Of a DNA stretch of 34,170 nt, positions 344-33,116 are shown in pieces. Where the stretch lies: contig JAHDHV010000016.1 in the NCBI GenBank assembly GCA_020631155.1, positions 1-34,170 of the forward strand, read 5' to 3'. The translations under genes and the position numbers were made by a program. The DNA is from Bacteroidota bacterium. Lineage in GTDB: Bacteria; Bacteroidota; Bacteroidia; Chitinophagales; UBA2359. The stretch's first letter is position 1. Each line of letters opens with the position of its first letter. A model generated the notes under the pieces. The model was not told where the DNA came from and searched no databases. It saw only the letters and a program-made list of their open reading frames with translations.

Positions 344-362
344 GAGAAAAGGTAAAATCTTT

Positions 363-386
363 AAAACCTTCTAACCTTCCAAACTC
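363..386 (+). promoter_or_regulatory. Copy a of conserved upstream motif AAAACCTTCTAACCTTCCAAACTC
   Basis: Near-identical motif also at 11537-11574 (+) and 15677-15709 (on - strand), each upstream of a gene start. Confidence 0.3.
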
Positions 387-3178: not shown

Positions 3179-3343
3179 AATAATGAGTTGTGAATCATAA
3201 ACCTAAAACTGTTTTAGACTATATGAAGCGAAAAACTTAAACATTGGTAGAAACATATTTCTACTACGGTAAGGTTTTTCAAGGAAATATAAAGCAAAAT
3301 AATAAAGCAAATTGCTTCAACTGATTATTGTAGAATTACTAAG
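3179..3343. repeat. Copy 1 of a ~150-165-bp dispersed element (termini AATAATGAGTTG ... CAACTGATTATTGTAGAATTACTAAG), homologous to 19601-19753
   Basis: Co-linear blocks align between the two copies (AATAAT.A.TTG..A.CATAAA; AAG(G)CGAAAAAC; TACGGyrAGGyTTTTCAAsG; AAGCAAAATAAyAAAGC; CAAyTGATTATTGTAGrATkACTAA). Confidence 0.5.
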
Positions 3344-6856: not shown

Positions 6857-6876
6857 TTTAATTATGAATTTATTTA

Positions 6877-6940
6877 ATTACGAATTACGAATTACGAATT
6901 ACGAATTACGAATTAGAAATTACGAATTAGAAATTACGAA
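6877..6940. repeat. Tandem 9-bp repeat (ATTACGAAT / ATTAGAAAT) x7
   Basis: Direct reading; same unit recurs at 27430-27462. Confidence 0.85.
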
Positions 6941-6995
6941 TTGTTGAATTATTATTTAGTCAACTGACCATTAATAATTCAACAATTCATTTTTT
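6941..6995 (+). terminator. Hairpin TTGTTGAATTATTA-loop17-TAATAATTCAACAA followed by TTCATTTTTT; likely ribBA terminator
   Basis: 14-bp perfect inverted repeat plus T-run. Confidence 0.55.
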
Positions 6996-7034
6996 ATGAG
7001 AAAAAAATATTTTTTATTTTATTTGTTATTAACT

Positions 7035-8165
7035 ATGGAAAAGGCATTTAAAAGTATTCGCATCCAAAATTTTAAGTCTATTAAAGACATAGAACTCAAT
7101 TGCAGCCGCATTAATTTATTTATTGGCAAGCCAAATGTGGGCAAATCCAATATTTTAGAGGCACTGTCTTTATTTGCCGCGCCTTTTAGTCAAGATGAAA
7201 AATATCTATCCGAATTTATTCGCTATCGAAATTTTAGCAATCTTTTTTATGATGATAATATTCGAGAACCCATTTTAATCACTTCTAATCTTGGGAATGG
7301 GCATTTGTTTTATGATAGAGAAAGATGGGCTTTCGGTCTGGTAATGAGTGATAAAAGTGTAAATTCAAATAAGTTGAATGTTTTAAATGTTGATTTAGTA
7401 AGTGACTATCTTGATAGCTTAGTAATTAAAAATACTTTAATCAGTGCTTTTCCTTCAAAAAATAAAGATGCTCATGGTGAGCATATAAGATTTAGTTTTT
7501 TCCAAAGTATTGATAGAGCTGGCTATAGAGGTAGGAGTGATAGAAACTATAAGTTTAAGTTGGAATACACATCAACTCTAAAAAAATACACCTTTAAAGA
7601 AGGAATAAATATCAGTTCACAAGGGGATTACAGCCTTTATCCTCCATTTGGAGATAATTTATTTTTAGTAGTACAAACAAATCCTGAGTTGAGGAGGGAA
7701 ATAGCTGATTTTTTTGAAGAATATAATATGGATTTTATATTAGATATAAAAAATAATGAATTTGAGGTGCAAAAAAAGGTAGATGGCATTGTTTATAAAA
7801 GACCTTACCAACTAATTGCAGATACTTTAAAGCGCATTATTTTTCATTATGCAGCCATTTATTCCAATAAAGATTCGATTTTATTATTTGAAGAACCAGA
7901 AAATCACTCTTTTCCGCCTTATGTGCGAGAGTTAGCCCATAAAATTGTGGATGATGAAAGCAATCAATTTTTTATTACCACACATAGTCCCTATTTATTT
8001 AATACCATTATCGAAAATGCATCAAGAGAAGATGTTTCTGTTTTTATCACTAACTTTGAGCAACATCAAACAAAGGTCAAGCAATTAACAGAGGATGAAA
8101 TTGCCGAACTATCTGATCATGGGGCAGATATTTTTTTCAATTTAAATTGGTTTGAAAATGAGTAA
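7035..8165 (+). CDS. ABC-type (AAA_21/AAA_15-like) ATPase, defense-associated type; module 1 ATPase. The ORF track start 6996 is less likely than MEKAFKSIRIQNFKSI at 7035
   Basis: Walker A IGKPNVGKSNILEAL; Walker B/D-loop ILLFEEPENHSFP; H-loop FITTHSPYLF; N-terminus typical of OLD/AbiL/PARIS-class ATPases. Confidence 0.75.
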   Translation: MEKAFKSIRIQNFKSIKDIELNCSRINLFIGKPNVGKSNILEALSLFAAPFSQDEKYLSEFIRYRNFSNLFYDDNIREPILITSNLGNGHLFYDRERWAFGLVMSDKSVNSNKLNVLNVDLVSDYLDSLVIKNTLISAFPSKNKDAHGEHIRFSFFQSIDRAGYRGRSDRNYKFKLEYTSTLKKYTFKEGINISSQGDYSLYPPFGDNLFLVVQTNPELRREIADFFEEYNMDFILDIKNNEFEVQKKVDGIVYKRPYQLIADTLKRIIFHYAAIYSNKDSILLFEEPENHSFPPYVRELAHKIVDDESNQFFITTHSPYLFNTIIENASREDVSVFITNFEQHQTKVKQLTEDEIAELSDHGADIFFNLNWFENE

Positions 8166-8649
8166 AGAGCGACACCCAAATATTCTTCCTGAATGTTATG
8201 CGGATACTTTGCTAGTGCATTTACTCGGTTTCAAATATCCCAATCATTGCCCTAGTATTGGTGCGGTAGCAAATACGATGAAAAAACAAAGCCTCGCTAT
8301 TGGAGTGATAGATCGAGATAAAAGGCAGCCCAAATATTTTAGTGAGTTTGATTTATTGGAAGAAAAACACGATTTGCAACTCAAAAAGCACCCTAACAAG
8401 CGACATTATTTGATTGTAGTTTCTCCTGCTTTTGAAAAATGGATATTTAAGGCAGCAGATTCTGTTGATGTCAAACCTGAAAAATATGGTTTTAAAACTT
8501 GGAAACGCTTTAAAAATATTTCTAAAAGTAGAACTGTAGATAGAAATCAGGATTTTAAGCAATTCATCAATGCCATCAAGCAAAAAAAATCACCACCTAC
8601 AGAGCAGATGATTGAGTGGATTCAGGATATTTTAGATAAAAACCTTTGA
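8158..8649 (+). CDS. Small (163 aa) partner protein of module 1 ATPase; possible minimal Toprim/RloB-like effector (DxD in LAIGVIDRDKRQ). Start overlaps the ATPase stop (ATGAGTAA); an alternative ATG lies at 8152
   Basis: Translationally coupled overlap with upstream ATPase; basic protein; DxD motif; no confident family assignment. Confidence 0.45.
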   Translation: MSKERHPNILPECYADTLLVHLLGFKYPNHCPSIGAVANTMKKQSLAIGVIDRDKRQPKYFSEFDLLEEKHDLQLKKHPNKRHYLIVVSPAFEKWIFKAADSVDVKPEKYGFKTWKRFKNISKSRTVDRNQDFKQFINAIKQKKSPPTEQMIEWIQDILDKNL

Positions 8650-8799
8650 TGGATTAGCTGTTTGTTTTTAGCGTGAAAAAGCATTTTTTTTACACCAAAA
8701 ACAAGCTTTTTTTCTATTGAAAACTTAGTAAGTACTGCACAATAATTAAACGGGATTCTTTGTTTGATTAAAACAATGAAAGCCAATACTTTAGAACAA

Positions 8800-8813
8800 A
8801 ATTGTGCACAATT
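8800..8813. promoter_or_regulatory. Perfect 14-bp palindrome AATTGTGCACAATT ~80 bp upstream of module 2 ATPase; related half-site CTGCACAATAATT ~60 bp further upstream
   Basis: Self-complementary sequence in the intergenic region between modules. Confidence 0.3.
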
Positions 8814-8892
8814 AATTAGTGCTTGGCACTTATTTCCTATTTTTGTTATTGATTAAGGTAGGGAGCAATTATTTTGTATAAAAAAAAGAAAA

Positions 8893-10185
8893 ATGAAAAG
8901 TTTTCGCATTAAAAATATAAAAGCTTTTAAGGATTCGGGGAAGATTGAAATAAAGCCGATTACTTTATTTTATGGCAAAAATAATACGGGAAAAAGCAGT
9001 TTAATTCGCTTTCCATTGGTATTAAAACAAACGATGCAGCGACCCTATGCCCCATTGATGTTTACAGGCATCCCCGAACGCCCTGATAATGTAGATTATG
9101 GCACTTATAAAGAAGTTGTGTTTAATAATGATGAAAGCAAACATATTGAGTTTGAATTGGAAGTGGATTATAGAAAAAATACCTTAAATTATTTAGTAAA
9201 TATTCAAAGAAAAAATGGACAACTTGAAGTGTTCTCTTATAAGGATAGGTATGAATCGTTGGAAGTAGAAGACGGTCAGTATATCTTCAGTGATTCACAA
9301 CTAACAAAGGAAGCAGTAGAAGTAGATTTTGATGGTTTTTTTCCAAAAGCGAGTCATTTTATTAATAAGCCAAAAACAGAAGATGGAAGGTTACTAGCTC
9401 GTCGTCATTCTTATCTAACTGACTTCTTCAATCAAATTTCTTACCTATCCACTTATCGTCCTAAACCAAAACGGCAATATCGTTTTAGTGATGTGGATTT
9501 CTCTAAATCGGGGGCAGAAGGCATTTATTGGGCAGAAATTTTGGGTTTTTATCATGAACAAAAAAATACCGCTTTTTTTGATGTACTTAATGATTGGTTA
9601 GTAAAAAATACAGGTTTAAGACTGTTGATTAAGGATTTGGGAAGTGTTTTTGAGATTATGGTAGAAAATATAAACACCAAACGAACAGATAATGTGGTAG
9701 ATATAGGCTCAGGATGGCAATTTCTACTACCTATTTTAATACAAACATTTGTTCATATTGAAAAAAAATCAGCTTCACCTTTTATTAAAATCATAGAAGA
9801 ACCAGAAATGCATCTGCATAGTTCGGTGCAAACAGCGGTTGCCGATTTATTTATTTGGGCAACACAAACGAATCCGCAAAATCGCTTTATGATAGAAACC
9901 CATAGTGAAAGTATTCTCTTGCGAACAGTTCGCAGGGTTATGGAATGGCTACAAACAAAAGGGGAAAAAGGCATTAATCCTGATGATGTAATTGTTTATT
10001 TTATTGAAAAAAGTGCCAATGAAGAAGAAGGTTCGAAGGTTACCCCTTTTAAAATTAATGAGAAAGGAATTTTGAAAAGTACTTTAGATGGTAGCATTAT
10101 GGATGAATCATTTTTTGACACTGATTTTGAGGAAGTAGTTGCCATTAACAAATTGCATGTATCACAGGCCGCGAAAAGTCAATAA
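8893..10185 (+). CDS. ABC-type ATPase (AAA_15/AAA_21-like, possibly with DUF3696-like C-terminus); module 2 ATPase, AriA/OLD-ATPase-like
   Basis: Walker A LFYGKNNTGKSSLIRF; signature-like IGSGWQFLLPIL; Walker B IKIIEEPEMHLH; H-loop MIETHSESILL; N-terminus MKSFRIKNIKAFKD. Confidence 0.75.
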   Translation: MKSFRIKNIKAFKDSGKIEIKPITLFYGKNNTGKSSLIRFPLVLKQTMQRPYAPLMFTGIPERPDNVDYGTYKEVVFNNDESKHIEFELEVDYRKNTLNYLVNIQRKNGQLEVFSYKDRYESLEVEDGQYIFSDSQLTKEAVEVDFDGFFPKASHFINKPKTEDGRLLARRHSYLTDFFNQISYLSTYRPKPKRQYRFSDVDFSKSGAEGIYWAEILGFYHEQKNTAFFDVLNDWLVKNTGLRLLIKDLGSVFEIMVENINTKRTDNVVDIGSGWQFLLPILIQTFVHIEKKSASPFIKIIEEPEMHLHSSVQTAVADLFIWATQTNPQNRFMIETHSESILLRTVRRVMEWLQTKGEKGINPDDVIVYFIEKSANEEEGSKVTPFKINEKGILKSTLDGSIMDESFFDTDFEEVVAINKLHVSQAAKSQ

Positions 10186-10188
10186 ACT

Positions 10189-11349
10189 ATGAATATTTGT
10201 ATTTCAGAAAATTTATGGAGGGCGGCTTTAACGGAAGAAGATACTTGCACTGTCATTGAAGAATTGCTACTTACTGTAAGAGCAAAAAAGCATAAGTTGT
10301 ATTTTGACTGGGACGAAGCTGTGCCTATTACAGAGTTGTTACAAAGTGATTTATTTGGTTTTTATAATCGAAGAATACTTAAAAAAAGCTATGAAAGATC
10401 ACGAACAGCTTTTCATTCCCTCGAAAAATATGTCTTAATCGTTCCTAAATCCTATATTGAGCAATGCAAAACGCAAGAGAATGTTAGGGCTTATTTTCAA
10501 GATCAAAAAGCAGTTAAAAGCAGCCCTGAACAAACGATTGAATTTATTGCTATTGAAGCTTGTCAACATTATTTATGCAGCCCTTTGATGATTATGGTGG
10601 AGGATGAAGAAAGTGATAAACTTTTTCTCAGTAGCATTTATCCTATTGTTATTCAATCAGTTAGCAATTTAGAAAATGCCAAATCCTTTGAAGAATTGAT
10701 TAAAGAACAGGAAATAGAGGTACTACATGGTGGAGGTACAGGTGTAACACAACGATTGAAGAATATCAAGTATCCTAGACGTGTTTTTTGCCTAATTGAT
10801 AGCGATAAATTATTTGAAAATGATGAAGGAACGGACGATACTAGAAAAAAACAAAGAGAAATCAACAATATTTGTAATCGAAAAGGCTTTGTTTTACATA
10901 TTCTCCACAACCGAATGATTGAAAATTACTTACCTGATAAAGCAATAAAAGAGTGGAGTAAAAAACAATCTCCTGTTATTCGACAAAACATAGCTAATCA
11001 CCCCTATTTTCAGCTAACAAGTACACAAAAAGCATTTTTTGATTGTAAAAAAGGTTTACTGCTCAAAGATTTTCAATATCCCGAAATTCAACAATCGTAT
11101 CTTGTACAATATCAACAAATACAACAAAATTCAGAACAATTTGATGCACTAAATAAGTTGATTCAAAACCAAGCTACAAAAGAAGATGGTAGCATTTTAA
11201 AAGTGAAAATTATTCAGGGCTTGAATCGGGAAATTTACAAAGCATTTAACGAAATCAAAAAAACTGAAAACCAAATCACCTCTGACAGTTTTGGAACGCA
11301 CCTCCAAGAATTAAAAGACATTTGCATAGCCATTCAAAGGCAGTTATAA
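10189..11349 (+). CDS. Module 2 partner (386 aa): putative Toprim-like (DUF4435/OLD-nuclease-like) effector
   Basis: Candidate Toprim elements MIMVEDEESDKLF (Glu), HGGGTG, FCLIDSDKLF (DxD); starts 4 nt after the ATPase stop; assignment by motif only. Confidence 0.45.
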   Translation: MNICISENLWRAALTEEDTCTVIEELLLTVRAKKHKLYFDWDEAVPITELLQSDLFGFYNRRILKKSYERSRTAFHSLEKYVLIVPKSYIEQCKTQENVRAYFQDQKAVKSSPEQTIEFIAIEACQHYLCSPLMIMVEDEESDKLFLSSIYPIVIQSVSNLENAKSFEELIKEQEIEVLHGGGTGVTQRLKNIKYPRRVFCLIDSDKLFENDEGTDDTRKKQREINNICNRKGFVLHILHNRMIENYLPDKAIKEWSKKQSPVIRQNIANHPYFQLTSTQKAFFDCKKGLLLKDFQYPEIQQSYLVQYQQIQQNSEQFDALNKLIQNQATKEDGSILKVKIIQGLNREIYKAFNEIKKTENQITSDSFGTHLQELKDICIAIQRQL

Positions 11350-11385
11350 CTCTATTAGAGTTTGGAGGTTGGTTTTTAGCCCTTT

Positions 11386-11450
11386 AAGTACTTAGACATA
11401 AGATGTGAGACATAAGACTTGAGATAGTTCATTCATTATTAACAGTTTAT
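11386..11450. repeat. Copy 1 of ~65-bp dispersed element AAGTACTTAGACATAAGATGTGAGACATAAGACTTGAGATAG...ATTATTAACAGTTTAT (second copy at 24060-24124)
   Basis: ~80% identity between the two copies, both immediately 3' of + strand stop codons. Confidence 0.5.
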
Positions 11451-11536
11451 GACAAGTTCAAATGTCATTTAATTTTGTCTAGTTACTTATTTTTTTAAAA
11501 AAGGGCATTAGTTTTAAAGTTTATTTAAAAAATAAA

Positions 11537-11574
11537 AACCTTATAACCTTATAACTTTGCAACCTTCCAAACCC
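11537..11574 (+). promoter_or_regulatory. Copy b of conserved upstream motif AACCTTATAACCTTATAACTTTGCAACCTTCCAAACCC, ends 25 nt before the NUDIX ATG
   Basis: Motif shared with 363-386 and 15677-15709(-). Confidence 0.3.
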
Positions 11575-11599
11575 TAATTTACACCAACATTTCACCACC

Positions 11600-12241
11600 A
11601 TGTACAAAATATTCATCAACGACATACCCGTTTATCTAACCGATGACAAAAAGCAAAAACCGACTACCAAAGCAAAATCGGTATGGCGGATTAAATACAG
11701 CAAAAAAACGGATTTACTCGCCACCATTCAGCTATTGGAGCAGCAACCGCCGATAGATGAGGTGTATATTATTACTGATAAAGTAAGCAAACTGTACAAA
11801 GTGTTTGCAGCGCATTATAAGGGCATTGTAGCGGCAGGAGGCGTTGTGTTTAATGAAAATGGGGAGTTGCTATTAATTTATCGCCGCAAAAAATGGGACT
11901 TGCCAAAAGGAAAGGTAGAGGAAAACGAAACCATTGATATGGCGGCGGTGCGCGAGGTAGAGGAGGAGACGGGCTTGAAAAATGTGGAATTGGGAGAAGA
12001 AATTTACATTCCTAGCAATCAATTTCATACGACTTATCACACCTATTTCAACAGCAAAGGTAAACGCATCCTAAAAACAACTTATTGGTATTATATGTCC
12101 TGTAATGGCGAGGCGCAACACTTAAAACCGCAATTAGAGGAAGATATTGAGGAAGTTCGTTGGGTGAATCCTCAACATATCGCTTCTTATTTAAATAATA
12201 CGTTTTTGTCTATTGTGGATGTCGTAAAGGCGTGTCTGTAG
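11600..12241 (+). CDS. NUDIX hydrolase
   Basis: Nudix box GKVEENETIDMAAVREVEEETGL (GX5EX7REUXEEXGU). Confidence 0.85.
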   Translation: MYKIFINDIPVYLTDDKKQKPTTKAKSVWRIKYSKKTDLLATIQLLEQQPPIDEVYIITDKVSKLYKVFAAHYKGIVAAGGVVFNENGELLLIYRRKKWDLPKGKVEENETIDMAAVREVEEETGLKNVELGEEIYIPSNQFHTTYHTYFNSKGKRILKTTYWYYMSCNGEAQHLKPQLEEDIEEVRWVNPQHIASYLNNTFLSIVDVVKACL

Positions 12242-15639: not shown

Positions 15640-15676
15640 AAGCTTTGATGAATTGTTTTAAACTTGGAAAGTTTTT

Positions 15677-15709
15677 GGAGTTTGGAAGGTTACAAAGTTA
15701 CAAGGTTTT
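15677..15709 (-). promoter_or_regulatory. Copy c of conserved upstream motif (minus strand reads AAAACCTTGTAACTTTGTAACCTTCCAAACTCC), 38 nt upstream of the FG-GAP gene ATG
   Basis: Reverse complement of GGAGTTTGGAAGGTTACAAAGTTACAAGGTTTT. Confidence 0.3.
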
Positions 15710-16027
15710 AAAGTTTTTATTTTTTTTAATGAATTTTAAATCTAATGCTTTTTGTCTTGTTAGTCAAAAATATACAAAATTCAAAGAGGTTATTATTTTT
15801 TTTATCAATAAAATAAAAGGCGAAAAGTCAATTTAGCTCCAAACTCTAAAAAGTTTTAAGGTTAAAAAGTTGGAAAGTTTTATATTATTGGCTTTATATG
15901 ATTGGCGAAGTCCATATAATTTTTTTTAAAAAAAGTTAATTATCAATTACTTAGTCTAATCTCTGATTTCTAACAGCTATACCAAAAACAGTTTAGAATC
16001 GTAATTTTTTATAGCCAAAGCCTATAA

Positions 16028-16105
16028 GGTTTGGTTCGGCGCGAGGTGGAACCTCGCCCCTGTAATCTAGCAGGTGTGAGGCTTTGCCTCGCTCCGAACC
16101 AAATT
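16028..16105. other. GC-rich structured element. Outer 16/17-bp stem TTTGGTTCGGCGCGAGG / CCTCGCTCCGAACCAAA encloses two similar hairpins GCGAGG-TGGAA-CCTCGC and GTGAGG-CTTTG-CCTCGC; candidate small structured RNA or REP-like element
   Basis: Nested inverted repeats; GC content far above the surrounding 1.15-kb AT-rich intergenic region. Confidence 0.3.
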
Positions 16106-16183
16106 AGTAGCCTCTGGCTACACTGATAAAAACAAATAAAAAATTTAACAACTTTCGCTTTTATCCTGTTTTTGGTATAACAG

Positions 16184-16263
16184 CTAAAAATCTAAAAATC
16201 TAAAAATCTAAAAATCTAAAAATCTAAAAATCTAAAAATCCAAAAGTCCAAAAGTCCAAAAAT
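16184..16263. repeat. Tandem 8-bp repeats (CTAAAAAT x6, CCAAAAGT x2, CCAAAAAT) followed by a leader-like TCGAACTTCTAATTGCTAACCTCT
   Basis: Direct reading; same unit family as the 2111-2414 array. Confidence 0.85.
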
Positions 16264-16789
16264 CGAACTTCTAATTGCTAACCTCTATTCATTATGACGA
16301 TTGCAAACTATAAAAAAGATGGCTAAGTAAACCAATGTAATCAATTTTTGGTGTTTTTGATGTAATACATCCGCCAATTAGTTAAGAAATACACAAAGAA
16401 CTTAGCAGAAATAAGTAAATAGTGACTTTACTATGATAAATGTAGACTAAAATATAAGCGAAATAGTGTTAGCTTTTAGAAAGCTTGTAGAAGCATTTTA
16501 TGAATTGTTTTTACTGGAAAGATGTGAAGTTTTTTATATTTTAAGTTGATGATATTTTTTTTATTTAAAAGTTTGATAATCAAGTTAAAACCCAATTAAA
16601 AAGCTAATATCTGATTGCTGTTTACTGAAAAGCTAAAAGAAATATTGTTTTTTAGAAAAATTATAAGCCAATTCAGCATCTAAATTTGAATTTTACTTAT
16701 TTTTGTGACCATTTTGAGACATTTGTATTCCATTAAACCATTATATAGGCGCAGTCCTCAAGCCCCTACCAATCATTAACACAAGCTTT

Positions 16790-19600: not shown

Positions 19601-19753
19601 AATAATCAATTGAACCATAAAGCCACAGTGATTTTGTTTTGTACAAGGCGAAAAACGTAGGCATAGTGTGGAGCTACGGCGAGGCTTTTCAACGTAGTAC
19701 AAGGCAAAATAACAAAGGCGACTGGTTCAATTGATTATTGTAGGATGACTAAT
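19601..19753. repeat. Copy 2 of the ~150-bp dispersed element; starts 7 nt after the antiporter stop; perfect 17-bp terminal inverted repeats AATAATCAATTGAACCA / TGGTTCAATTGATTATT
   Basis: Co-linear homology to 3179-3343; internal direct repeats GTACAAGGCGAAAA / GTACAAGGCAAAAT. Confidence 0.5.
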
Positions 19754-20432: not shown

Positions 20433-20787
20433 GAGTAAATGTTTTTAATTTAGGTAAAGTGAAAAGGTAAGCGAAATAGAATAGACTATTTTTTTGTGGG
20501 AGAATACTAGATGTCACACATCAAGTTAAATTTATTTATACAAATATTGGCATGTTTTCTGAAAATACAGTAACTTACAGCACCTATACAACCATTTTCC
20601 AACAATACTAACTACTGGAAAGTTCCTAGAAAAGACTTTATTTTAAATTTAATACTATAAAGGAACTATTTGTTTGAAAACATCCTTGTTTTTTACGGAA
20701 GGAATTTACTTAATCTTGAATTGAGGTTAACTACTAGTGGCTTGATTATCTCAAATCTTATGTCTAATTTCTTATATCTAAGTACTT

Positions 20788-21565: not shown

Positions 21566-21617
21566 ATTTCTGATCTCTAACTTCTAAAAACCTAAATATC
21601 CAAAAGTCCAAATATCC
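21566..21617. repeat. Short copy of the leader plus 16-bp repeat family (AATTTCTGATCTCTAACTTCTAAAAACCTAAATATCCAAAAGTCCAAATATCCA)
   Basis: Matches leader and units of the 2080-2414 array. Confidence 0.7.
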
Positions 21618-21742
21618 ATATTATTGAATCAAAAATAAATGTCTTATGTCTTTACTGTTGATTATTTTTTTATTATGTTTGCTGCATAAATGCAGTGAAT
21701 TAGGAGCTTTGTGAAATTAAAAACAATAAACTATATATAACT

Positions 21743-24061: not shown

Positions 24062-24124
24062 GTACTTAGACGTAAGATATGAGATATGAGACTTGGGGTA
24101 ACTGATTTATTGTTAATTGTTTAT
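24060..24124. repeat. Copy 2 of the ~65-bp dispersed element AAGTACTTAGACGTAAGATATGAGATATGAGACTTGGGGTAACTGATTTATTGTTAATTGTTTAT; overlaps the flotillin stop codon
   Basis: Alignment with 11386-11450. Confidence 0.5.
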
Positions 24125-24220: not shown

Positions 24221-24268
24221 ACAACTCACAACTCACAACTCACAACTCACAACTCACAACTCACAACC
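24221..24268. repeat. Heptanucleotide tandem repeat (ACAACTC) x ~6.5 immediately upstream of the folC ATG
   Basis: Direct reading. Confidence 0.85.
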
Positions 24269-25583: not shown

Positions 25584-25635
25584 TGTTGTTTTTGTTTCTA
25601 AAAATCTGTATTTTTGTAGAAAAAAAGAAATAAAT
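25584..25635. repeat. 52-bp direct repeat, copy 1 (TGTTGTTTTTGTTTCTAAAAATCTGTATTTTTGTAGAAAAAAAGAAATAAAT), abuts the abiEi ATG
   Basis: Identical to 27034-27085. Confidence 0.9.
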
Positions 25636-26263
25636 GAGCTTTTTTGAATTTCAAAATACCTTTGTTAAGCATCCTGTTATTTCAATATTAGAGATTAAAA
25701 AGTACTTTTCAAATTTTGATAATAATGCTTTAACTCGATGGCAAAAAAAAGGATATATAAGAAAAATTAGAAATGGTTTTTATCGTCTAAGCAAACCAAA
25801 GATTACTACTGTAGAAGAACTATTTTTTACTGCAAATCGCATTTATTGGCCTTCTTACATTTCGTTACATTCTGCTTTGCGATGGTATGATTTTATTCCA
25901 GAGGAAGTATTTTCAATAACCTCTGTTACTACTAAAAAAACACAGCAGTTTGAAACAGTAGATGGCACGTTTAAGTATCAAAATTTTAAAAAGAATCTGT
26001 TTTTTGGGTATAAACTAGAAAAGAATAATAAAGGATATTACTTTAAAATGGCAACACCAGAAAAAGCATTACTAGATTTTTTGTATTTGAATCCCCATCT
26101 TAAAACAGAAGATGATATTTTTGAATTGCGATTAAATGCTTTTGAAATTCAGGAGAAAGTAAATCTAAAAGTTTTAGATGCATATTTGTCACTTTTTGAT
26201 TCTAAAGCCTTAAATAAAAGAGTAAGTAATTTTAAAAAAATATTATATAATGAAAACTATTGA
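25634..26263 (+). CDS. abiEi: AbiEi-family antitoxin / transcriptional regulator (type IV TA)
   Basis: N-terminal wHTH GYIRKIRNGFYRL; core PSYISLHSALRWYDFIPEEVFSITSVTT typical of AbiEi; overlaps downstream abiEii by 14 nt. Confidence 0.8.
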   Translation: MSFFEFQNTFVKHPVISILEIKKYFSNFDNNALTRWQKKGYIRKIRNGFYRLSKPKITTVEELFFTANRIYWPSYISLHSALRWYDFIPEEVFSITSVTTKKTQQFETVDGTFKYQNFKKNLFFGYKLEKNNKGYYFKMATPEKALLDFLYLNPHLKTEDDIFELRLNAFEIQEKVNLKVLDAYLSLFDSKALNKRVSNFKKILYNENY

Positions 26264-27026
26264 TGAAATTTGTTCCTTTTATCCTTCTGCTTTGCATAAT
26301 CGGGGAGCTTTTTTGTTGAGGGAGTATTTACAGTATAAGATTTTAGAGATCATATTTCAAAGTGACTATGCCTTGAAATTTTCATTTTTAGGTGGAACTT
26401 GTTTACGTATTATCCATAATACTCAGCGATTTTCAGAAGATTTAGACTTTGATAATTTTGATTTATCAGAGAAAGATTTTGAATTAGTTTCAGAGGTAAT
26501 TAAAAATGGGTTAGAAGAGCAGGGCTTTCGCGTTGAAATGCGTAATGTCTTTCGAGCAGCATATCATTGTTATATTCGCTTTCCTGGATTATTATATAAA
26601 ATGGGGCTAAGTGGACATAAAGAGGCTAAAATTTTAATTAACTTAGATACAGAACCACAAAACTTTGTTTTTCAGTCTGAAACACATTTTTTAAATAAAT
26701 TTGATGTTTTTACCTCAATATATACGACTCCATTAGACCTATTATTAAGCCAAAAAATTCTAGCAATTACGCAAAGAAAGCGACCTAAAGGACGGGATTT
26801 TTACGATGTCGTTTTTTTGAGTGGGCATACAAAACCAAATTATGGTTTTTTAACACAACGTTTGTCTATTACTAATGCAGATGAACTAAGAATACATATG
26901 GAAGCTATTTGCAAAAAAAGGAATTTTCCACAACTAACTAAAGATGTTGAACCATTTTTATTTAATATAAAGGATCGGCAACGCATTTTATTATTTCCTG
27001 AATATCTTAAAACTATAAAATGGTAA
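26250..27026 (+). CDS. abiEii: AbiEii/AbiGii-family nucleotidyltransferase toxin (DUF1814)
   Basis: Motifs SFLGGTCLRI and RFSEDLDFDN characteristic of AbiEii nucleotidyltransferases. Confidence 0.85.
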   Translation: MKTIDEICSFYPSALHNRGAFLLREYLQYKILEIIFQSDYALKFSFLGGTCLRIIHNTQRFSEDLDFDNFDLSEKDFELVSEVIKNGLEEQGFRVEMRNVFRAAYHCYIRFPGLLYKMGLSGHKEAKILINLDTEPQNFVFQSETHFLNKFDVFTSIYTTPLDLLLSQKILAITQRKRPKGRDFYDVVFLSGHTKPNYGFLTQRLSITNADELRIHMEAICKKRNFPQLTKDVEPFLFNIKDRQRILLFPEYLKTIKW

Positions 27027-27033: not shown

Positions 27034-27085
27034 TGTTGTTTTTGTTTCTAAAAATCTGTATTTTTGTAGAAAAAAAGAAATAAAT
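27034..27085. repeat. 52-bp direct repeat, copy 2, identical to 25584-25635
   Basis: Exact match. Confidence 0.9.
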
Positions 27086-27429: not shown

Positions 27430-27462
27430 TTTAATTACGAATTAGAAATTACGAATTATGAA
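27430..27462. repeat. 9-bp ATTACGAAT / ATTAGAAAT repeats (same family as 6877-6940)
   Basis: Direct reading. Confidence 0.75.
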
Positions 27463-27515
27463 TTGTTTTTTTGGATGGGGGAGATATAAAGGTTTTCAAT
27501 CTAATTGATAAGTTT

Positions 27516-28745: not shown

Positions 28746-31328
28746 TTATTCGTTGAGCTTTTTTACCAATGAAAACAATCTAGAGGTGTCTACTATTACT
28801 TCATTTAATTGTTCTTTACTATATTTAGCTACTCTTGAATGAAAAGTTTCATTTCGTTCATCTATTGTGTACTCTTTTAAATTCTTTACCACTTGCTTTA
28901 TAATTAACTTAATTTCGTTAGTTTTGGAATTACCAAAATAGTTTAAAATAAAGTTGTGTTCTAACCACAGCCAATTTAAAACTTTTTTCATTTCACCAAG
29001 GCTAGAATAGTATATGAGATGTAAATCATTTTTTAAAGCTCTATTTCTATTATATTCCCATTTAGATACTAACTTTGAGTTTCTTTTATTTACAAAATCT
29101 TCAAATGTTATGTCATTTTCAAAAAGTTCAATTACAAAAATTCTTAATTGCTCTTCCGAGTTTATTAAGTGAGTCGTTATTTTTTGTATCATATTTTCTT
29201 GTTCTTCTTCAGCAATCATTTTCTTTGCTTTTGCATAAACACTTTTGCAGTTTTCATCATTAAGGGCAATCCTCTTATGATCTTCAAATGTTATAAGTAT
29301 TCTTTCCCAATCACGCTCACTTGCATGGATTTGTAATAAAACTCTTAATGCATTTTTTTCATACTCAATATCTGTGTCTTTATCTGAGTAGGTTAATATT
29401 TTTTTTGCTATTTTCTTTGCTTTTTCATAATCTCTATCTTTACTTGAGGTATAGTAGTTCATGTCCTTTACAAAATAATTGATGGAATTTTTTATCTTAT
29501 TTTCATAGAGTCTTATTTTACTATTAATCTTATCATTAGAAAAAATTTTCAGATATTTAGTATGAACTTTCTTTTTTTCTTTTAAATATTTTATTTTATT
29601 TTCAATACTGTCATCTTCCTTAACTAGTTTATCTACTAATTGTAAATAAATATTTTTTTCCTTATGCACAAGTAAAGTCAATTCAATACTTTTCCATTCC
29701 CGTAAAAATTCTATTTTATCAGCAATTCGTTCATTATTATATTGACTAATTATTTTTTTTGCTTCCTCCCTTAGTATTTCAAATCTTTTTAAATATTTAT
29801 ATATGTTAATGTACTGTTTTGCAATTGAGGTGTCATATGATGTTTCTTTTAAAGCGTTTATTGCTATGTTAATTGCAACTTGTCTTCTTTTGGGACGCTG
29901 TTCCATTTTTATCCAATCAAACCATATGTTTTTATTAGTTGGATTGAGCTCTGTAGCTCTACGAAAATTTTCAGATGCTTTAGAATACAAATAAAGAACA
30001 GTTTGTACTTTTGCTAACTCATGATATAATCTATAATCTTCAATTCTTTCAATTGCATTTATTAGTGAATTTTCAGCTCCCTTATAATCTAAGTCATTTA
30101 AATAGATTTTTAATCTTTCAAGAAATAAGTCAACTTTATCTTTAGAAATCTCCTTATTTAGCATCGCATTTTTAAGTCCAAGTACTTTGTTCTCTATTTC
30201 GTCGTAGTCTATATAGTGCTGTTTAGCAAAATTTATAGCCATCTTACTTATTATTATTTCTCCATTAGCACTTTCAGCAATCAACTGATTTGCATAGAGT
30301 TCATCAATAATTTGCTCCAGTTTGCCAGAATCAAAGTTACTATAGTTCATTAGAGTTTCTATTGTGATAGGTTCATCTTTTTTACTCCGATTTCTATGTA
30401 ATGAAGTTATTATTTTAAATATCAACTGTGTATCTGTGTTCAATGATTCATACATATCCTTGAAACTAAATAGGATTATTTCAGACATTCTTTGTTTTTT
30501 CTCTTTAGGCGTTTTAGCATCTTCAATACTAGGATAACCCTCAAGTTCTTGAAAAATTTGCCCTCTAGACTTACCTCTGATTAGTTGTCCAATTATAAAT
30601 TCAATAGCTAGTGGAATTTTTCCAACTCGTTCTATTAACTTTAAGTTCATCTTTTCGGAAGAATTGATGATTTCAAGAATTCTCTTTTCTCTATTATTTT
30701 CTGCTAACCATATTAACATATCATAGGCTTTTGTCAGAGAAAGACCTTGTATTTCAATAGGAAAGTCTGCTATCTTTTTTCTTTTTCGTGATGTAGTTAA
30801 CACTTTTAAATATCTATTATTTCGGCTATATTTATTGAATTTTCTGAGAAAAGTGAAAAAATCGGGATTATTTATCGTCTCCAAGTTATCTAATACAAAA
30901 AAGATTTTTTCATCTTTTACAATTTCTTCAAAAAAACTCTTTCGTTCTAGAAAAGGATGTTTAAGGAATTCGGGGAATCCAGCTAATCTAATAGTTTCAT
31001 CAATTAATATTTCAATTGGCTTATCTTTGAATTCATTTTTTATATTTATTATTTGATTATCTGTTGCAAAGGCATCAAAAACAGTATTCTTCGCTGTAAC
31101 CCAAACAAGGTAACTAAAATCACCACTTTTAAGCAAATATTCTTTACAGAAATAATAGGCTAGTGCTGTTTTGCCAATTCCACCAATTCCATCTATAGAG
31201 GCTATATATGTGCCACCTTCAATTAATTCATCTTTGATTTTTGAAATTGTGTTTTCACGACCAAAAAATTTCATATATGGTTGATTTGGTAAATTGTGAG
31301 TTGTTTTTGTATATGTTAGCTCTTTCAT
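28746..31328 (-). CDS. STAND-class NTPase (NB-ARC-like P-loop at residues ~45-55) followed by ~600 aa of TPR/helical repeats; no recognisable N- or C-terminal effector domain
   Basis: P-loop IDGIGGIGKTALAYYF; Walker B FFVLDNLE; repetitive helical remainder with frequent Y/W/K-rich ~34-aa periodicity. Confidence 0.7.
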   Translation of the reverse strand: MKELTYTKTTHNLPNQPYMKFFGRENTISKIKDELIEGGTYIASIDGIGGIGKTALAYYFCKEYLLKSGDFSYLVWVTAKNTVFDAFATDNQIINIKNEFKDKPIEILIDETIRLAGFPEFLKHPFLERKSFFEEIVKDEKIFFVLDNLETINNPDFFTFLRKFNKYSRNNRYLKVLTTSRKRKKIADFPIEIQGLSLTKAYDMLIWLAENNREKRILEIINSSEKMNLKLIERVGKIPLAIEFIIGQLIRGKSRGQIFQELEGYPSIEDAKTPKEKKQRMSEIILFSFKDMYESLNTDTQLIFKIITSLHRNRSKKDEPITIETLMNYSNFDSGKLEQIIDELYANQLIAESANGEIIISKMAINFAKQHYIDYDEIENKVLGLKNAMLNKEISKDKVDLFLERLKIYLNDLDYKGAENSLINAIERIEDYRLYHELAKVQTVLYLYSKASENFRRATELNPTNKNIWFDWIKMEQRPKRRQVAINIAINALKETSYDTSIAKQYINIYKYLKRFEILREEAKKIISQYNNERIADKIEFLREWKSIELTLLVHKEKNIYLQLVDKLVKEDDSIENKIKYLKEKKKVHTKYLKIFSNDKINSKIRLYENKIKNSINYFVKDMNYYTSSKDRDYEKAKKIAKKILTYSDKDTDIEYEKNALRVLLQIHASERDWERILITFEDHKRIALNDENCKSVYAKAKKMIAEEEQENMIQKITTHLINSEEQLRIFVIELFENDITFEDFVNKRNSKLVSKWEYNRNRALKNDLHLIYYSSLGEMKKVLNWLWLEHNFILNYFGNSKTNEIKLIIKQVVKNLKEYTIDERNETFHSRVAKYSKEQLNEVIVDTSRLFSLVKKLNE

Positions 31329-31520
31329 TTTTTTATGTTTTGTAAATTATAGGACACTAAAGTGTTCAAGCTGTCTAAAATCTAGAACTTTTTCTTCCTT
31401 AATTCATCAACTTAAAAGCACTTCTAAGATTATATATATACTGCAAATATAGTCAAGCTTAACAACTCCACCAAATAATCACAACATTTATTAAATCTTT
31501 AGCAATTAATCCACAAAAAC

Positions 31521-31565
31521 CAAAAAAAACGCCTATATTTTGGCTACATACTCCAAAATATAGGC
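31521..31565 (-). terminator. Hairpin GCCTATATTTTGG-loop9-CCAAAATATAGGC followed on the minus strand by GTTTTTTTTGG; probable original terminator of the A2M gene, now separated from it by an IS
   Basis: 13-bp perfect stem with minus-strand U-tract. Confidence 0.5.
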
Positions 31566-31592
31566 ATTCAATTATATCATGCCATCATTTTC

Positions 31593-33116
31593 CTAGTAAT
31601 AACGGTTTTCCCCGAAAAGTTATTACTGATAGTCAGCGAGTTATGCATTTTCTGCATGAAAAAAGGGTGTTTTATCCGTTTTTTGAAATAAATATATAAC
31701 AGATGACACTTTCATAGTAATGGATTATTTCCATTTAAAGAAGTAGCCACTAATAAATTTTCTAGCCAGTGGTCTCTATATCTAAAGCCATTGAGTTGCT
31801 CAAAACGCGACTTCACTCCCCCTTTAGCTTTAATGGTTTGGCTACTATAATGGCTAAAATTAATTAAAAGGGCATGAGCTCGCATGATGTCATTGGCACT
31901 CTGTATGTCACCATGAAAGTGCTACATAGCACTTAATTTTTTTTTTGTGTTTTCATCAATCTATCTAACATATTAGAGGTTCTACGACAATCTATTTGGT
32001 CATAATAAGTCATATATTCCTCTTTTTTAAGACAGAGTTTCAGGGCTGCTTTTTTGAGTGGATTATCAGGCAGGTGTAGGAGTATCCATTCTTCTAAGCG
32101 TCTCATTTGTTGGGCAAAACTTTGTTTATTTTCTGCCTTATAAGCTGTCCAAGCCTTTTTTAGTAGTACAGTCGCATAAGGTTGTAATTGTTTAGTCGCT
32201 CTTTTGTCTATATTGAGTATGCCATGTAAAAAACAACGAATCAGTGTGGTGTTCTCAAATAAGTGTTCCATTACTTTAAGGGTAGATTTAAAGCCATCTG
32301 TATTGATAGTCAATGGTTTATAATCATCTGCTATGCACTTAACTTCTTGTTTAAAGACTTCATAAGCATTCGTTAAGTGCTCAAAGTCAATGGATGGACT
32401 AGCGGCTGTACCCAAAAAACAATCTCCACCTACGGTGGTGGCTAAATATATTTTTTGCCCATTTAGCTTGTCATGGTGTTCATCTACAATAAGATGCTCT
32501 GGAAGCAAAGACCGCCTTTTGATGCTTGTTCCAACAATGTTTTTTCATGCCCAAAAGCACTCCGCTCGATACCAGAACATGGCATCTTTACCCAACAAAG
32601 TGACTACAGCATGATAAGGCACATTATAACGTCGTAGAAACAAACCTTCTGCAACAAAGCTAGTGCTTGCACGTAAATATGGAAACATAAAACAAGGATG
32701 TAAGAGGTATTCTGCTTGATTAGATAGTAGCTGAATTCTACGTCTAGGCAAAGCTTGTTTTTGACTTGTTTTACTCCAACCATAAAAACGATAGCCTTGT
32801 TGGATAGCAGTTGGAAATAACTCTGGAAAACAGCTAATTAAGTCATCTATATACTTTCTAAATTCAAAACGATTATGTAAAACCTCTGCATAAGAGCGCA
32901 TGTCGATAGGTAATATAATTGTTTTTGAACCCCTGTTGCTTAAAAGATAATTTTGCATATGACAAAGATGCTGATTATCAAGCAATTAACCTAATTAAAA
33001 CAAAAATAGAATGTATATGTTTTCCAAGATCCGATAAACTTGATTTTTTACCCCCTTTTTTTTCGTAAATTACTGATTATCAAGCTTATAAAATCGGGGA
33101 AATCCGTTACAACTAG
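31593..33116 (-). mobile_element. Degenerate insertion sequence (~1524 bp): imperfect ~27-bp terminal inverted repeats (CTAGTAATAACGGTTTTCCCCGAAAAG vs reverse complement CTAGTTGTAACGGATTTCCCCGATTTT), perfect 8-bp target-site duplication TCATTTTC (31585-31592 and 33117-33124); DDE transposase gene interrupted
   Basis: TIR and TSD read directly; internal ORFs 32545-32985 and 31933-32508 plus further C-terminal fragments down to ~31700 are co-linear on the minus strand but separated by a frameshift and stops. Confidence 0.7.
31700..32985 (-). pseudogene. Transposase pseudogene (frameshifted / stop-interrupted; family not assignable by eye)
   Basis: Two ORF fragments and downstream stop-containing continuation (e.g. 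HYSSQTIKAKGGVKSRFEQLNGFRYRDHW) in different frames. Confidence 0.55.

Follow-up and report, generated by a model that had tools for sequence, protein, structure and literature searches.

Correia elements of Neisseria are inverted-repeat elements of ~100 to 150 bp that lie before unrelated genes and carry promoter sequences at their ends; their terminal repeats measure 26 bp, a TA target is duplicated, and copies number in the hundreds. In the Bacteroidota, the BrickBuilt MITE of Porphyromonas gingivalis holds an imperfect tandem repeat inside a conserved "leader" and "tail" with small terminal inverted repeats (PMC4596501). The putative mobile promoters surveyed by Matus-Garcia et al. in 2012 (PMC3488235) form an operational category that implies no mechanism, defined by homology of ≥50 nt at ≥80% identity before nonhomologous coding sequences of one genome. 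Short tandem arrays are represented by TAACTGA heptamers and the cyanobacterial STRR (MacGregor 2015, PMC4679880), head-to-tail units of 7 to 8 nt that are intergenic, mostly "forward," and near start codons and for which a post-transcriptional role has been proposed. The sigma-A promoter of the Bacteroidota consists of a −33 TTG and a −7 box, TAnnTTTG, the latter spanning positions −12 to −5 (PMC9723704).

The window analyzed here, a stretch of 34,170 nucleotides from a Saprospirales-like MAG, contains three exact copies of the 12-mer AACCTTCCAAAC, at positions 373 to 384 (+), 11561 to 11572 (+), and 15680 to 15691 (−), compared with a mean of 0.03 matches in shuffled sequences, none of 100 of which reached three. 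All three copies are intergenic, in the sense orientation to the downstream gene, and located 25 to 63 nt 5′ of its start codon. The motif end (..CCAAACYC) lies 63 nt before an S41 peptidase gene (ATG at 450), 25 nt before a NUDIX gene (11600), and 38 nt before an FG-GAP gene (15639, − strand), the Pfam assignments of which were S41, NUDIX, and FG-GAP plus Por_Secre_tail, respectively. The sequence-only reading of this DNA had described a near-identical motif in gene orientation 25 to 65 nt before the ATG of these three genes, and the measurements bear it out; occurrence in coding regions or in random orientation, which would have counted against that description, was not seen among the exact copies. 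A 14-mer placed at random in the intergenic DNA of the window, on either strand, has a probability of 0.106 of ending 0 to 65 nt 5′ of a start codon on its own strand, which gives 0.0012 for three of three copies. When the inverted copies of the core are counted in, two of five do not point at a gene. This position makes a role in transcription initiation and/or in the 5′ leader most likely for the element; to that extent the function originally suggested for the motif stands, whereas the alternative sigma factor or TF regulon attached to it is not supported.

The shared motif is not the stand-alone site of ~30 bp that had been proposed but the right end of an intergenic repeat element with inverted repeats at its boundaries. 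The copies at the second and third sites (E2 and E3) are homologous over 69 nt at 87% identity (11505 to 11572 versus 15748 to 15680; BLAST, E = 2e-17), with similarity continuing past these 69 nt in a wider alignment, and each has an inverted partner, GAGTTTGGA, 150 to 200 nt upstream, giving elements of ~213 to 225 bp. In local alignments, both partners beat 500 of 500 shuffles. The sequence at 15841 to 15870, previously taken for degenerate copies of the motif, is indeed related but represents the inverted CCAAACTC core (15838 to 15846, +) preceded by a second AAC(C/T)TT array, and an inverted copy matching this left core is also found at E2 (11354 to 11371). The 12-mer is not demonstrably better conserved than the rest of the repeat. 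Special constraint on it was considered and rejected by arithmetic, 12 straight matches at 87% identity having a p of ~0.19 (0.87^12).

AACCTT(N2)AACCTTCCAAAC(T/C)C is thus probably the right end of a small, AT-rich, noncoding dispersed repeat family of ~170 to 225 bp and MITE-like form, represented by two complete copies and one partial copy within the 34-kb contig. From left to right, a full element would consist of a short inverted repeat (GAGTTTGGA...), a middle that varies, a ~70-nt block that is conserved (GCATTAG-TTTAAA followed by a run of A), the octamer AAC(C/T)TTNN in an imperfect tandem array, and a second inverted repeat at the right end (..TCCAAACYC). The string AACCTTCCAAACYC would mark element copies, and GAGTTTGGA...TCCAAACYC is the inverted-repeat pair. 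E2 (225 bp) and E3 (213 bp) are short noncoding elements with terminal inverted repeats, as MITEs are, and E1 is single-ended.

E2 (11354 to 11578, +) starts 4 nt past the stop codon of hyp386 and ends 21 nt before the NUDIX ATG, filling 225 of the 250 nt between the two genes. As delimited by sequence, inverted-repeat alignment, and folding, it forms one long imperfect hairpin (minimum free energy [MFE], −52.7 kcal/mol; z = −3.4). Its left inverted repeat, ATTAGAGTTTGGAGGTTG (11354 to 11371, +), is an inverted, compacted copy of the right end (score of 26 versus a null of 14.2 ± 2.1, reached by 0 of 500 shuffles); reverse complemented, it reads as the right arm in compacted form (GTACTTA-AAGGGC-TAAAAACC-AACCTCCAAACTCTAAT). 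A box scan placed the −7-like sequence TAATTTTG at 11470 to 11477 (+), and tandem-repeat analysis delimited an AAC(C/T)TTNN array of period 8 and 3.8 copies at 11537 to 11566 (+), which includes TAACTTTG (11552 to 11559, +). The right inverted repeat, CAACCTTCCAAACCCTAAT (11560 to 11578, +), holds the invariant 12-mer.

E3 (15656 to 15868, −), before the FG-GAP/T9SS gene, has 31-nt arms that are 81% complementary and 151 nt apart (score of 35 versus a null of 17.1 ± 2.5, 0 of 500 shuffles). It measures 213 bp between the outer inverted-repeat ends and 169 bp from core to core (15678 to 15846). On the gene strand, the right-end core AACCTTCCAAACTC (15678 to 15691, containing the invariant 12-mer at 15680 to 15691) adjoins the octamer array (15689 to 15715, period 8, 3.4 copies), which includes TAACTTTG (15700 to 15693); the −7-like box TATTTTTG is found at 15765 to 15772. 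The left core (15838 to 15846), located by inverted-repeat search, reads TCCAAACTC on the + strand and GAGTTTGGA on the gene strand. The second AAC(C/T)TT array (15848 to 15886, −) lies just outside this left core in the orientation of the main array.

E1 (353 to 386, +) is a solo right end, GGTAAAATCTTTAAAACCTTCTAACCTTCCAAACTC, in which BLAST matched 353 to 375 with 15719 to 15697 and 365 to 386 with 15699 to 15678. It lies directly 3′ of a tRNA-Met gene (227 to 301) and its terminator hairpin (302 to 341), and local alignment found no inverted-repeat partner. E1 corresponds to E3 without exactly one 8-nt unit, the one bearing the −7 box, which is the pattern expected from array slippage. The E1 region is identical in an independent Logan contig of 1.9 kb (L051), which spans site 1 only.

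No convincing flanking direct repeat of the kind left by target-site duplication was apparent by inspection at E2 or E3, the boundaries of which are uncertain by a few nucleotides, and no transposase with matching (GAGTTTGGAAGGTT-like) ends was found in the window; the sole nearby transposase is a degraded IS256-like fragment (31933 to 32508) with ends unlike those of the element. An nhmmer profile of E1 to E3 recovered only the array part elsewhere among all fetched loci. Neither E2 nor E3 had a BLAST match among plasmids or phages, a motif scan of viral contigs gave 8 matches, none related to the element, and a full-text literature search for the motif strings returned primers only. A stricter pattern run against metagenomes yielded two loci, L049 and L050, and no second assembly of site 2 or 3. 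In a motif scan of 185k species genomes, at least 47 single matches in unrelated phyla were present among the matches listed; AACCTTCC-like arrays are widespread, 22 of 49 matches being intergenic, with 10 pointing toward gene starts and 10 toward gene ends among the matches listed. Two NCBI paralogues (P0144 and P0150) belong to other organisms.

At E2 and E3, the octamer unit directly 5′ of the 12-mer is TAACTTTG, a perfect sigma-A −7 box, and the earlier denial of any resemblance between the motif and the sigma-A −7 consensus was wrong for these two sites. The box lies 48 nt (NUDIX) and 61 nt (FG-GAP) before the ATG. By the −12 to −5 rule (PMC9723704), transcription is predicted to start at ~11564 and ~15688, with 5′ untranslated regions (UTRs) of ~36 and ~49 nt. 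The boxes TAATTTTG and TATTTTTG, candidate P1 promoters to the candidate P2 formed by TAACTTTG, are 130 and 133 nt before the respective ATGs, and no TAnnTTTG other than those of the elements is nearer to either gene. For the FG-GAP gene, with an upstream region of 1150 nt, all such boxes in the 300 nt scanned 5′ of the ATG are inside the element. A −33 TTG was not found at the expected 17 to 23 nt upstream of TAACTTTG in E2 or E3, where the sequence is A-rich. By our estimate, TAnnTTTG arises by chance in ~10 to 15% of AAC(C/T)TTNN arrays, and the −7 match counts once, having come to E2 and E3 by common descent. In similar arrays from other organisms (L049 and L050), its place is taken by AAACTTTG, AACTTTCC, or TAACTTTC. 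The best match at site 1 is TAACCTTC (6 of 8 positions), so the explanation preferred here leaves the S41 gene promoterless. Other promoter types were also considered and rejected: a scan for Escherichia coli-type sigma-70 promoters and terminators gave no excess over shuffles, and inspection by eye for a sigma-54 consensus found no GG/GC spacing.

We favor, with moderate confidence, the reading in which these sequences are copies of a MITE-like "mobile promoter" repeat that supplies an ordinary housekeeping promoter and an unstructured leader and defines no special regulon. The TAACTTTG unit of the array would serve the housekeeping sigma factor as its −7 box, transcription would start inside the invariant 12-mer, and the resulting leader would be G-poor, unstructured, and 36 to 49 nt long; a second −7-like box, ~130 nt before the ATG, would also be provided from within the element. 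The element would have been duplicated or mobilized to sites before unrelated genes and its copies kept where a generic promoter and leader suit translation without a Shine-Dalgarno sequence. Such spread and retention would account for copies before unrelated genes, which would need no common dedicated regulator.

The leaders themselves show little structure, with MFE values of 0 and −3 kcal/mol for the short forms, z values of +0.9 and +1.1 for the long forms, and an overall range of 0 to −7.5 kcal/mol with z above 0. No Rfam family matched the leaders or elements at gathering or E-value thresholds. A structured RNA such as a riboswitch was rejected because there was neither an Rfam family nor a stable fold in the leaders. 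The 60 nt before the NUDIX and FG-GAP ATGs hold 1 to 3 G, and G-poor leaders are general in the window. Low leader structure tunes translation in Bacteroidota (PMC6847099).

The 6.4 kb of intergenic DNA in the window contains at least seven dispersed repeat families detected by BLAST, in addition to many arrays of period 7 or 8. The other array families occur in either orientation, also between convergent genes, and a second G-free array, ACAACTC in 6.7 copies, ends 6 nt before a folC-like ATG. Upstream of the nearest homologues of the NUDIX (77% identity), FG-GAP (65%), and S41 peptidase (50%) genes, the motif is absent; these homologues are distant, at 50 to 77% amino acid identity, so that intergenic turnover is expected anyway and the loci cannot stand in for true empty sites. 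The NUDIX homologue is preceded by a different gene, the end of which lies 10 nt from the ATG.

The G-free AAC(C/U)UU array together with CCAAACYC could instead act post-transcriptionally, lying in a 5′ UTR that begins at the upstream −7 box and binding a single-strand RNA-binding protein of the S1, cold-shock, or RRM type that would set translation. The sense orientation near start codons, the extreme G depletion, the lack of secondary structure, the second G-free array before the folC-like gene, and the published parallel of TAACTGA heptamer arrays in Beggiatoaceae, Cyanobacteria, and Bacteroidetes (PMC4679880) are all consistent with such a leader element. The TAACTTTG promoter, if used, would nevertheless leave most of the array untranscribed, the other array families of the window keep to no orientation or gene-start position, the balance of gene starts and gene ends across phyla is even among the matches listed, and no binding protein was identified. 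We consider this account fairly unlikely; it overlaps partly with the mobile promoter reading and does not exclude it.

It is also possible, though unlikely, that E2 and E3 are invertible promoters (invertons), in which the GAGTTTGGA and TCCAAACYC cores would be the sites of one invertase and a promoter segment of 150 to 200 bp would flip to switch the NUDIX and the FG-GAP/T9SS genes; the common core would then reflect a common invertase, as with Mpi in Bacteroides fragilis. At sites 2 and 3, a promoter-like segment does lie between significant inverted repeats with the same core; the −7 box beside the gene-proximal repeat reads outward, and one downstream gene codes for a secreted, surface-type protein. 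The spacing of 151 to 199 nt is typical as well: invertons, which are common in Bacteroidetes, measure less than 300 nt in more than 75% of known cases (PMC11602134). However, site 1 has no partner repeat, and the exact core of E3 is just 9 to 10 nt, the rest of its 31-nt arm being an A/T-run pseudopalindrome. E2 is palindromic far past its ends, which fits a MITE better than a minimal recombination site, and the two arms are conserved unequally between the loci. No recombinase was recognized among the open reading frames of at least 80 amino acids in the window, and a single orientation was seen, in assembled sequence only.

The proposal that accompanied the motif, a site for an alternative (ECF- or SigP-type) sigma factor or a TF defining a regulon of S41 peptidase, NUDIX hydrolase, and T9SS cargo, appears improbable. 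In its favor are the three sense copies near start codons, the recurrence of the AAC triplet as in ECF −35 elements, a similar motif 28 nt before an ATG in the unrelated metagenome contig L049, and the ECF-controlled T9SS genes known in Flavobacterium (PMC9723704). The comparison with ECF promoters fails at the −10 position, as no CGT-type box follows the AAC units at ~16 to 17 nt and the stretch from each array to its start codon is free of CG dinucleotides. Two of the sites carry a canonical sigma-A −7 box, the closest homologue of each of the three genes lacks the motif upstream, and no sigma or anti-sigma gene was recognized among the window's open reading frames of at least 80 amino acids. 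The period of 8 bp does not fit the helical phasing of direct-repeat binders. The copies also form part of longer homologous elements that inverted repeats delimit, the 12-mer is not demonstrably better conserved than its flanks, other dispersed intergenic repeats crowd the genome, and the functions of the three genes are unrelated. When unrelated genes in this lineage share a motif, the spread of a repeat is a better explanation than coregulation, and an inference of a regulon from motif sharing would therefore mislead.

Another view, that the repeat is selfish or neutral debris of recombination and slippage, without function for its neighbors and positioned where insertion was tolerated, we find doubtful. 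The crowding of every intergenic context with repeat families, the absence of the motif at homologous loci, the truncation of E1, and the AACCTTCC-like arrays seen without an orientation rule in many phyla, among the matches listed, agree with it. Position and orientation are nonrandom, however (p ~0.001), and some promoter function is hard to avoid for the FG-GAP gene, the only scanned TAnnTTTG boxes of which are within the element.

A bolder idea is that this window and distant phyla share a recurrent class of cis-element, the G-free octamer array of AACCTTCC type, which would be read by a conserved single-strand nucleic acid-binding factor (S1-, cold-shock-, or RRM-like) or by a guide RNA and would drive expression without a Shine-Dalgarno sequence or promoter. 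We think this quite improbable; if true, the three copies in the window would be a real trans-controlled gene set and not a passive repeat. Least convincing is a role as targets of dCas12f-sigma-E. In this case (T/C)AACCTTCCAAAC would be matched by a guide RNA from another locus, and RNA polymerase would be brought in with no need of promoter motifs; guides of 14 nt and a 5′-G TAM characterize such systems, in which one guide can target up to seven loci (PMC12259090). Near-identical 14- to 15-mers do precede unrelated genes of this Bacteroidota genome and adjoin a 5′ G at sites 2 and 3. However, the TAM position at site 1 is C, and the reported start 46 bp past the TAM would put transcription from the G at 11559 at ~11605, beyond the conserved start codon (ATG at 11600). 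The window contains neither an rpoE-dcas12f locus nor a guide RNA, most of the targets reported are susCD operons and two-component systems, and the ~55 nt of homology upstream of the would-be target is not needed for target matching alone. We regard this account as exceedingly unlikely.

If the element does provide a promoter and leader, it exemplifies a way in which a change in gene order may be followed by rewired expression in a poorly sampled Saprospirales-like bacterium. Two defense-like genes, inserted as a pair, have cost the NUDIX gene its upstream operon partner, and this gene now lies behind the element. In addition, the window samples in compact form the unexplained abundance of intergenic 7- to 8-nt arrays in filamentous or gliding Bacteroidota and Cyanobacteria.

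The element can be compared with the systems described at the outset and with invertons. It shares with Correia elements the inverted repeats, the placement before unrelated genes, and, as candidates here, promoter sequences at the ends, whereas 26-bp terminal repeats, a TA duplication, and hundreds of copies describe the Correia family. Mpi-type invertons of Bacteroidales resemble E2 and E3 in having inverted repeats 150 to 200 bp apart around a candidate promoter, a core common to the loci, and a neighboring gene for a secreted or surface protein; they differ from the present case, in which no invertase was found in the window, one orientation is seen, one copy is partnerless, and the element is internally palindromic. 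The likeness to the Bacteroidota sigma-A promoter consists of a perfect TAACTTTG box at two sites, at a typical distance from the ATG, whereas the −33 TTG is missing and site 1 has only a 6-of-8 match. The arrays share with TAACTGA and STRR arrays (PMC4679880) their tandem period (8 nt, 3.4 to 3.8 copies), intergenic forward placement near start codons, unrelated downstream genes, and coexistence of several array families per genome, Bacteroidetes included; the unit, AAC(C/T)TTNN, is neither TAACTGA nor a known STRR unit, and here the array sits inside a longer inverted-repeat-bounded element with a sigma-A −7 box. Like BrickBuilt (PMC4596501), the element is a noncoding, always intergenic Bacteroidota repeat with an imperfect tandem array inside conserved flanks and small terminal inverted repeats, found in full, partial, or one-sided copies. 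The BrickBuilt unit is 23 nt, in up to ~23 copies and elements of up to 991 nt, compared with 8 nt, 3 to 4 copies, and ~200 bp here; the two have no sequence similarity, and promoter activity was measured for BrickBuilt segments and is only inferred for ours. Relative to the mobile promoter survey (PMC3488235), which took for every promoter a fragment of fixed length (100 nt) placed 50 nt from the start codon, the match between E2 and E3 is partly nearer to the ATG, but with 69 nt at 87% identity before the unrelated NUDIX and FG-GAP genes the pair falls within the category as it was defined.

The 12-mer AACCTTCCAAAC occurs exactly three times in the window (373-384 and 11561-11572 on the plus strand and 15680-15691 on the minus strand), compared with a mean of 0.03 matches in dinucleotide shuffles, where three copies were reached in 0 of 100 trials; permitting two mismatches added only noise. 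The copies precede genes encoding an S41 peptidase (ATG 450; the mechanical open reading frame begins at TTG 387), a NUDIX hydrolase (ATG 11600), and, on the minus strand, an FG-GAP protein with a T9SS sorting domain (ATG 15639), which are the identities given by the sequence-only reading. Each copy lies in the sense orientation and ends 63, 25, or 38 nt, respectively, before the start codon. A random intergenic 14-mer on either strand has a probability of 0.106 of ending 0 to 65 nt before a same-strand start codon, and the chance of all three copies being so placed is ~0.0012. The shared motif and its gene-ward orientation near start codons are confirmed.

The similarity extends beyond the ~30-bp site first described. 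The sites upstream of the NUDIX and FG-GAP genes (sites 2 and 3) share 69 nt at 87% identity (11505-11572 versus 15748-15680; E = 2e-17) and are more weakly alike farther upstream, where AATTTTGT is common to both. The site upstream of the S41 gene (site 1) aligns with site 3 over only ~35 nt, the difference being a clean 8-nt deletion of one unit of an array of AAC(C/T)TTNN octamers. Because overall identity is already 87%, an unbroken 12-mer is unremarkable (0.87^12, or ~0.19), and nothing marks it out as specially constrained. At sites 2 and 3 the right-end core, CCAAACYC, has an inverted partner upstream (ATTAGAGTTTGGAGGTTG at 11354-11371 with CAACCTTCCAAACCCTAAT at 11560-11578, and 15838-15868 with 15656-15686), and each pair beats 500 of 500 dinucleotide shuffles; the same test found no partner at site 1. 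The site 3 arms form a clean inverted repeat only in a 9- to 10-nt core, the outer part being an A-run/T-run pseudo-palindrome. The "degenerate copies" reported at 15841-15870 correspond to this inverted core together with a second AAC(C/T)TT array, giving five core copies, three directed at genes and two directed away. Of the 250 nt separating the NUDIX ATG from the stop codon that precedes it, 225 belong to the element at site 2 (E2, 11354-11578, plus strand), which over its full length folds into a single long, imperfect hairpin (-52.7 kcal/mol; z = -3.4). By direct reading of the sequence, the left arm of E2 reverse-complements to a compacted version of the right arm, to which the array and its -7 box are confined.

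We consider it somewhat better than an even chance that the motif forms the right-hand end of a dispersed, MITE-like repeat that carries a promoter, with putative solo (353-386, plus strand), E2, and E3 (15656-15868, minus strand) copies. In the proposed layout, a left inverted repeat is followed by a variable middle, a conserved A/T-rich block, the octamer array with its -7 box, and finally the right inverted repeat. Duplication or mobilization may have placed copies before unrelated genes, and copies would be retained where the element provides a leader that is poor in G and unstructured, together with a sigma-A promoter; slippage of the array could delete the box, as in the solo copy. The element may be mobile; neither an evident target duplication nor a cognate transposase was found in the window.

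At sites 2 and 3, the array unit that immediately precedes the 12-mer, TAACTTTG, is a perfect match to TAnnTTTG, the Bacteroidota sigma-A -7 consensus, which the motif had been said not to resemble. No -33 TTG accompanies this box, and by our own estimate about one in ten arrays would match by chance; site 1 is missing precisely the box-bearing unit. From the position of the box in Flavobacterium psychrophilum (-12 to -5; PMC9723704), transcription starts are predicted at ~11564 and ~15688, within the 12-mer, with predicted leaders of 36 and 49 nt; the median 5' UTR in Bacteroidota is 24 to 32 nt (PMC9723704). A second -7-like box (TAATTTTG / TATTTTTG) lies 130 to 133 nt before each ATG, also within the element, and no further TAnnTTTG was found nearer to either gene. 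Since both nearest boxes are element borne, a sigma-A promoter of the NUDIX and FG-GAP genes would be supplied by the element, whichever box acts.

Leaders in the window, read on the sense strand, tend to contain little G and more C than G, and the motif leaders have almost no structure (short ones, 0 and -3 kcal/mol; 131- to 134-nt ones, z = +0.9 and +1.1) and match no Rfam family. They are compatible with Bacteroidota translation, which lacks Shine-Dalgarno pairing and is tuned by leader structure (PMC6847099); a translational benefit may follow. A leader-binding protein acting on the array, as proposed for TAACTGA arrays (PMC4679880), agrees with the G-free, unstructured leader and would overlap the promoter-bearing repeat model if the upstream box were the true promoter; we regard it as doubtful. 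An inverton, that is, a promoter segment invertible between inverted repeats, would suit the repeats, their spacing, and the internal promoter but is unlikely, because site 1 is a solo copy, E2 is palindromic inside, and no recombinase was recognised in the window.

The motif is absent upstream of the closest homologues of all three genes. In the locus of the NUDIX homologue (L048; 77% identity), the ATG comes 10 nt after the end of a different gene; in the window, two defence-like genes and then E2 precede the NUDIX gene, the second AAA_15/AAA_21 ATPase pair replacing the gene found there in L048. The 90 nt upstream of an FG-GAP homologue (65% identity, aligned from Met1) are unrelated, and two S41 homologues (50% identity) have other neighbors and no motif. 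Named homologues of the FG-GAP protein point to Saprospirales/Saprospiraceae as the affiliation of the window. Across site 1, the sequence is the same in a Logan contig from SRR14415274. The absence at homologues argues against a conserved regulon without proving recent insertion, because the relatives are distant. The sequence-only reading was apt in pointing to a promoter- or leader-related element, but its alternative-sigma regulon is not supported: a dedicated sigma or transcription factor is improbable, since an ECF-type -10 box is missing, the homologues do not conserve the motif, and no regulator linked to it was recognised in the window. Neutral debris is similarly improbable, being contradicted by the positional bias. 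Targeting by dCas12f-sigma-E is an attractive idea in view of the 14-nt guide and 5'-G TAM (PMC12259090) but is very improbable: transcription, reported to begin 46 bp from the TAM, would here start beyond the NUDIX ATG, and the G is missing at site 1.

The promoter-bearing repeat would sit in a repeat-crowded setting. The window, one whole contig of 34,170 bp from an unannotated MAG at NCBI (34.7% GC), has 6.4 kb of intergenic DNA with at least seven dispersed repeat families and many arrays of period 7, 8, 14, or 16, spanning all intergenic contexts in both orientations; sequence common to three upstream regions is therefore weak evidence of co-regulation. Arrays include CACGAATC/TTCGTGA (1-31, at the contig start, and 1899-1951, directly after the S41 stop codon), AATTACG heptamers (6873-6942 and 27430-27464, pointing both ways with respect to the gene that follows), intergenic CTAAAAAT, and a 300-bp AAAGGCTAAATATCCA/AAAGTCCAAATATCCA 16-mer array of ~19 copies between convergent genes (2107-2406), at which an independent Logan assembly breaks; shorter relatives lie in intergenic DNA at 16178-16264 and 21583-21622. 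A G-free ACAACTC array (6.7 copies, 24221-24267) ends 6 nt before the likely start (ATG 24274) of a folC/Mur-ligase-like gene, the layout of the published TAACTGA arrays; the mechanical open reading frame from TTG 24214 runs through it. A 40- to 60-nt module, GTACTTAGACATAAGA... (GTACTTAGACATAAGATGTGAGACATAAGACTTGAGAT), occurs at 11385-11450 (plus), 24062-24124 (plus), and 20747-20787 (minus), with one copy nested in E2, one directly after a stop codon, and a third, oppositely oriented, adjoining a start codon.

Other features were also seen. A GC-rich, near-perfect hairpin of ~105 nt (16012-16120; -66 kcal/mol; z = -9.3 on the plus strand and -10.8 on the minus strand) lies in a 1,150-nt intergenic region of 29% GC and had only a sub-threshold mir-14 match in Rfam. 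Identical 50-nt direct repeats (25584-25633 and 27034-27083), containing a promoter-like TTG ... TATTTTTG, flank an AbiEi-like/AbiEii toxin-antitoxin pair, possibly as the trace of a cassette that is mobile or was duplicated. A 79-nt repeat (78% identity) is common to two intergenic regions lying far apart (3264-3342 and 19674-19752), the latter copy lying inside a 17-nt perfect inverted repeat (19601-19617/19723-19739). An open reading frame at 31933-32508 (minus strand), adjoining a 604-nt gap (31329-31932), weakly and partially matches IS256-family transposases (profile positions 190 to 312 of 338) and probably represents a degraded insertion sequence, with ends unlike the inverted repeats of the element. 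Defence-type genes are abundant (6996-11349, 25634-27026, and 28746-31328), including two AAA_15/AAA_21 ATPase pairs, AbiEi/AbiEii, and an NB-ARC protein.

A metagenome scan matched two loci. L049 (41% GC) has AAACTTTGAAACCTTCCAAACCC 28 nt before an ATG and a TTG 22 nt upstream of box-like AAACTTTG; L050 (35.6% GC) has several AAC(C/T)TT arrays, one directly upstream of a textbook TTG-N19-TATTTTTG promoter. Across the window, L049, and L050, the G-poor strand is the sense strand of the next gene in six of six independent intergenic regions. L050 also contains (8755-9400) a tandem 157-nt unit plus a third partial copy, each unit having a conserved box, AATTTCACCT..CATGTCGCACCAC.CCC..AGTGT.ATTT, then an AACTTT-type array, with no Rfam match. 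Among the genome-scan matches listed, AACCTTCC-like octamer arrays (L003, L007, L011, L015, L026, L027, L031, L038, L041, and L042), several of them hairpins with GGAAGGTT arms, occur in Cytophagales, Chloroflexota, Elusimicrobia, Verrucomicrobiota, Cyanobacteria, Peribacteria/candidate phylum, and other hosts; by crude open reading frame calls, 22 of the 49 matches listed are intergenic, oriented to gene starts versus gene ends 10 to 10. Given the number of octamer classes, this cross-phylum recurrence is not clearly above simple-sequence expectation. In L027, CGATTAC heptamers adjoining the array are reminiscent of the AATTACG arrays of the window. Four IMG/VR viral contigs (L056, L057, L058, and L061) share a conserved, apparently non-coding stretch with AACCTTCAAACCTTCCAAACCT and nearby CCAAACC/CAAACCTT words, showing no relation to the element beyond the AACCTTCAAACCTTCCAAACCT word.

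The unit sequence and architecture are new, and the kind of element is already known. The array belongs with the loosely defined intergenic short direct repeats of Cyanobacteria, Beggiatoaceae, and Bacteroidetes, and the E2/E3 pair falls under the operational definition of putative mobile promoters. The closest described relative is the BrickBuilt MITE of P. gingivalis, also of the Bacteroidota, which is strictly intergenic, has an internal tandem repeat between conserved flanks with small terminal inverted repeats, and occurs as full and partial copies; promoter activity has been measured in BrickBuilt and would be expected of the element.
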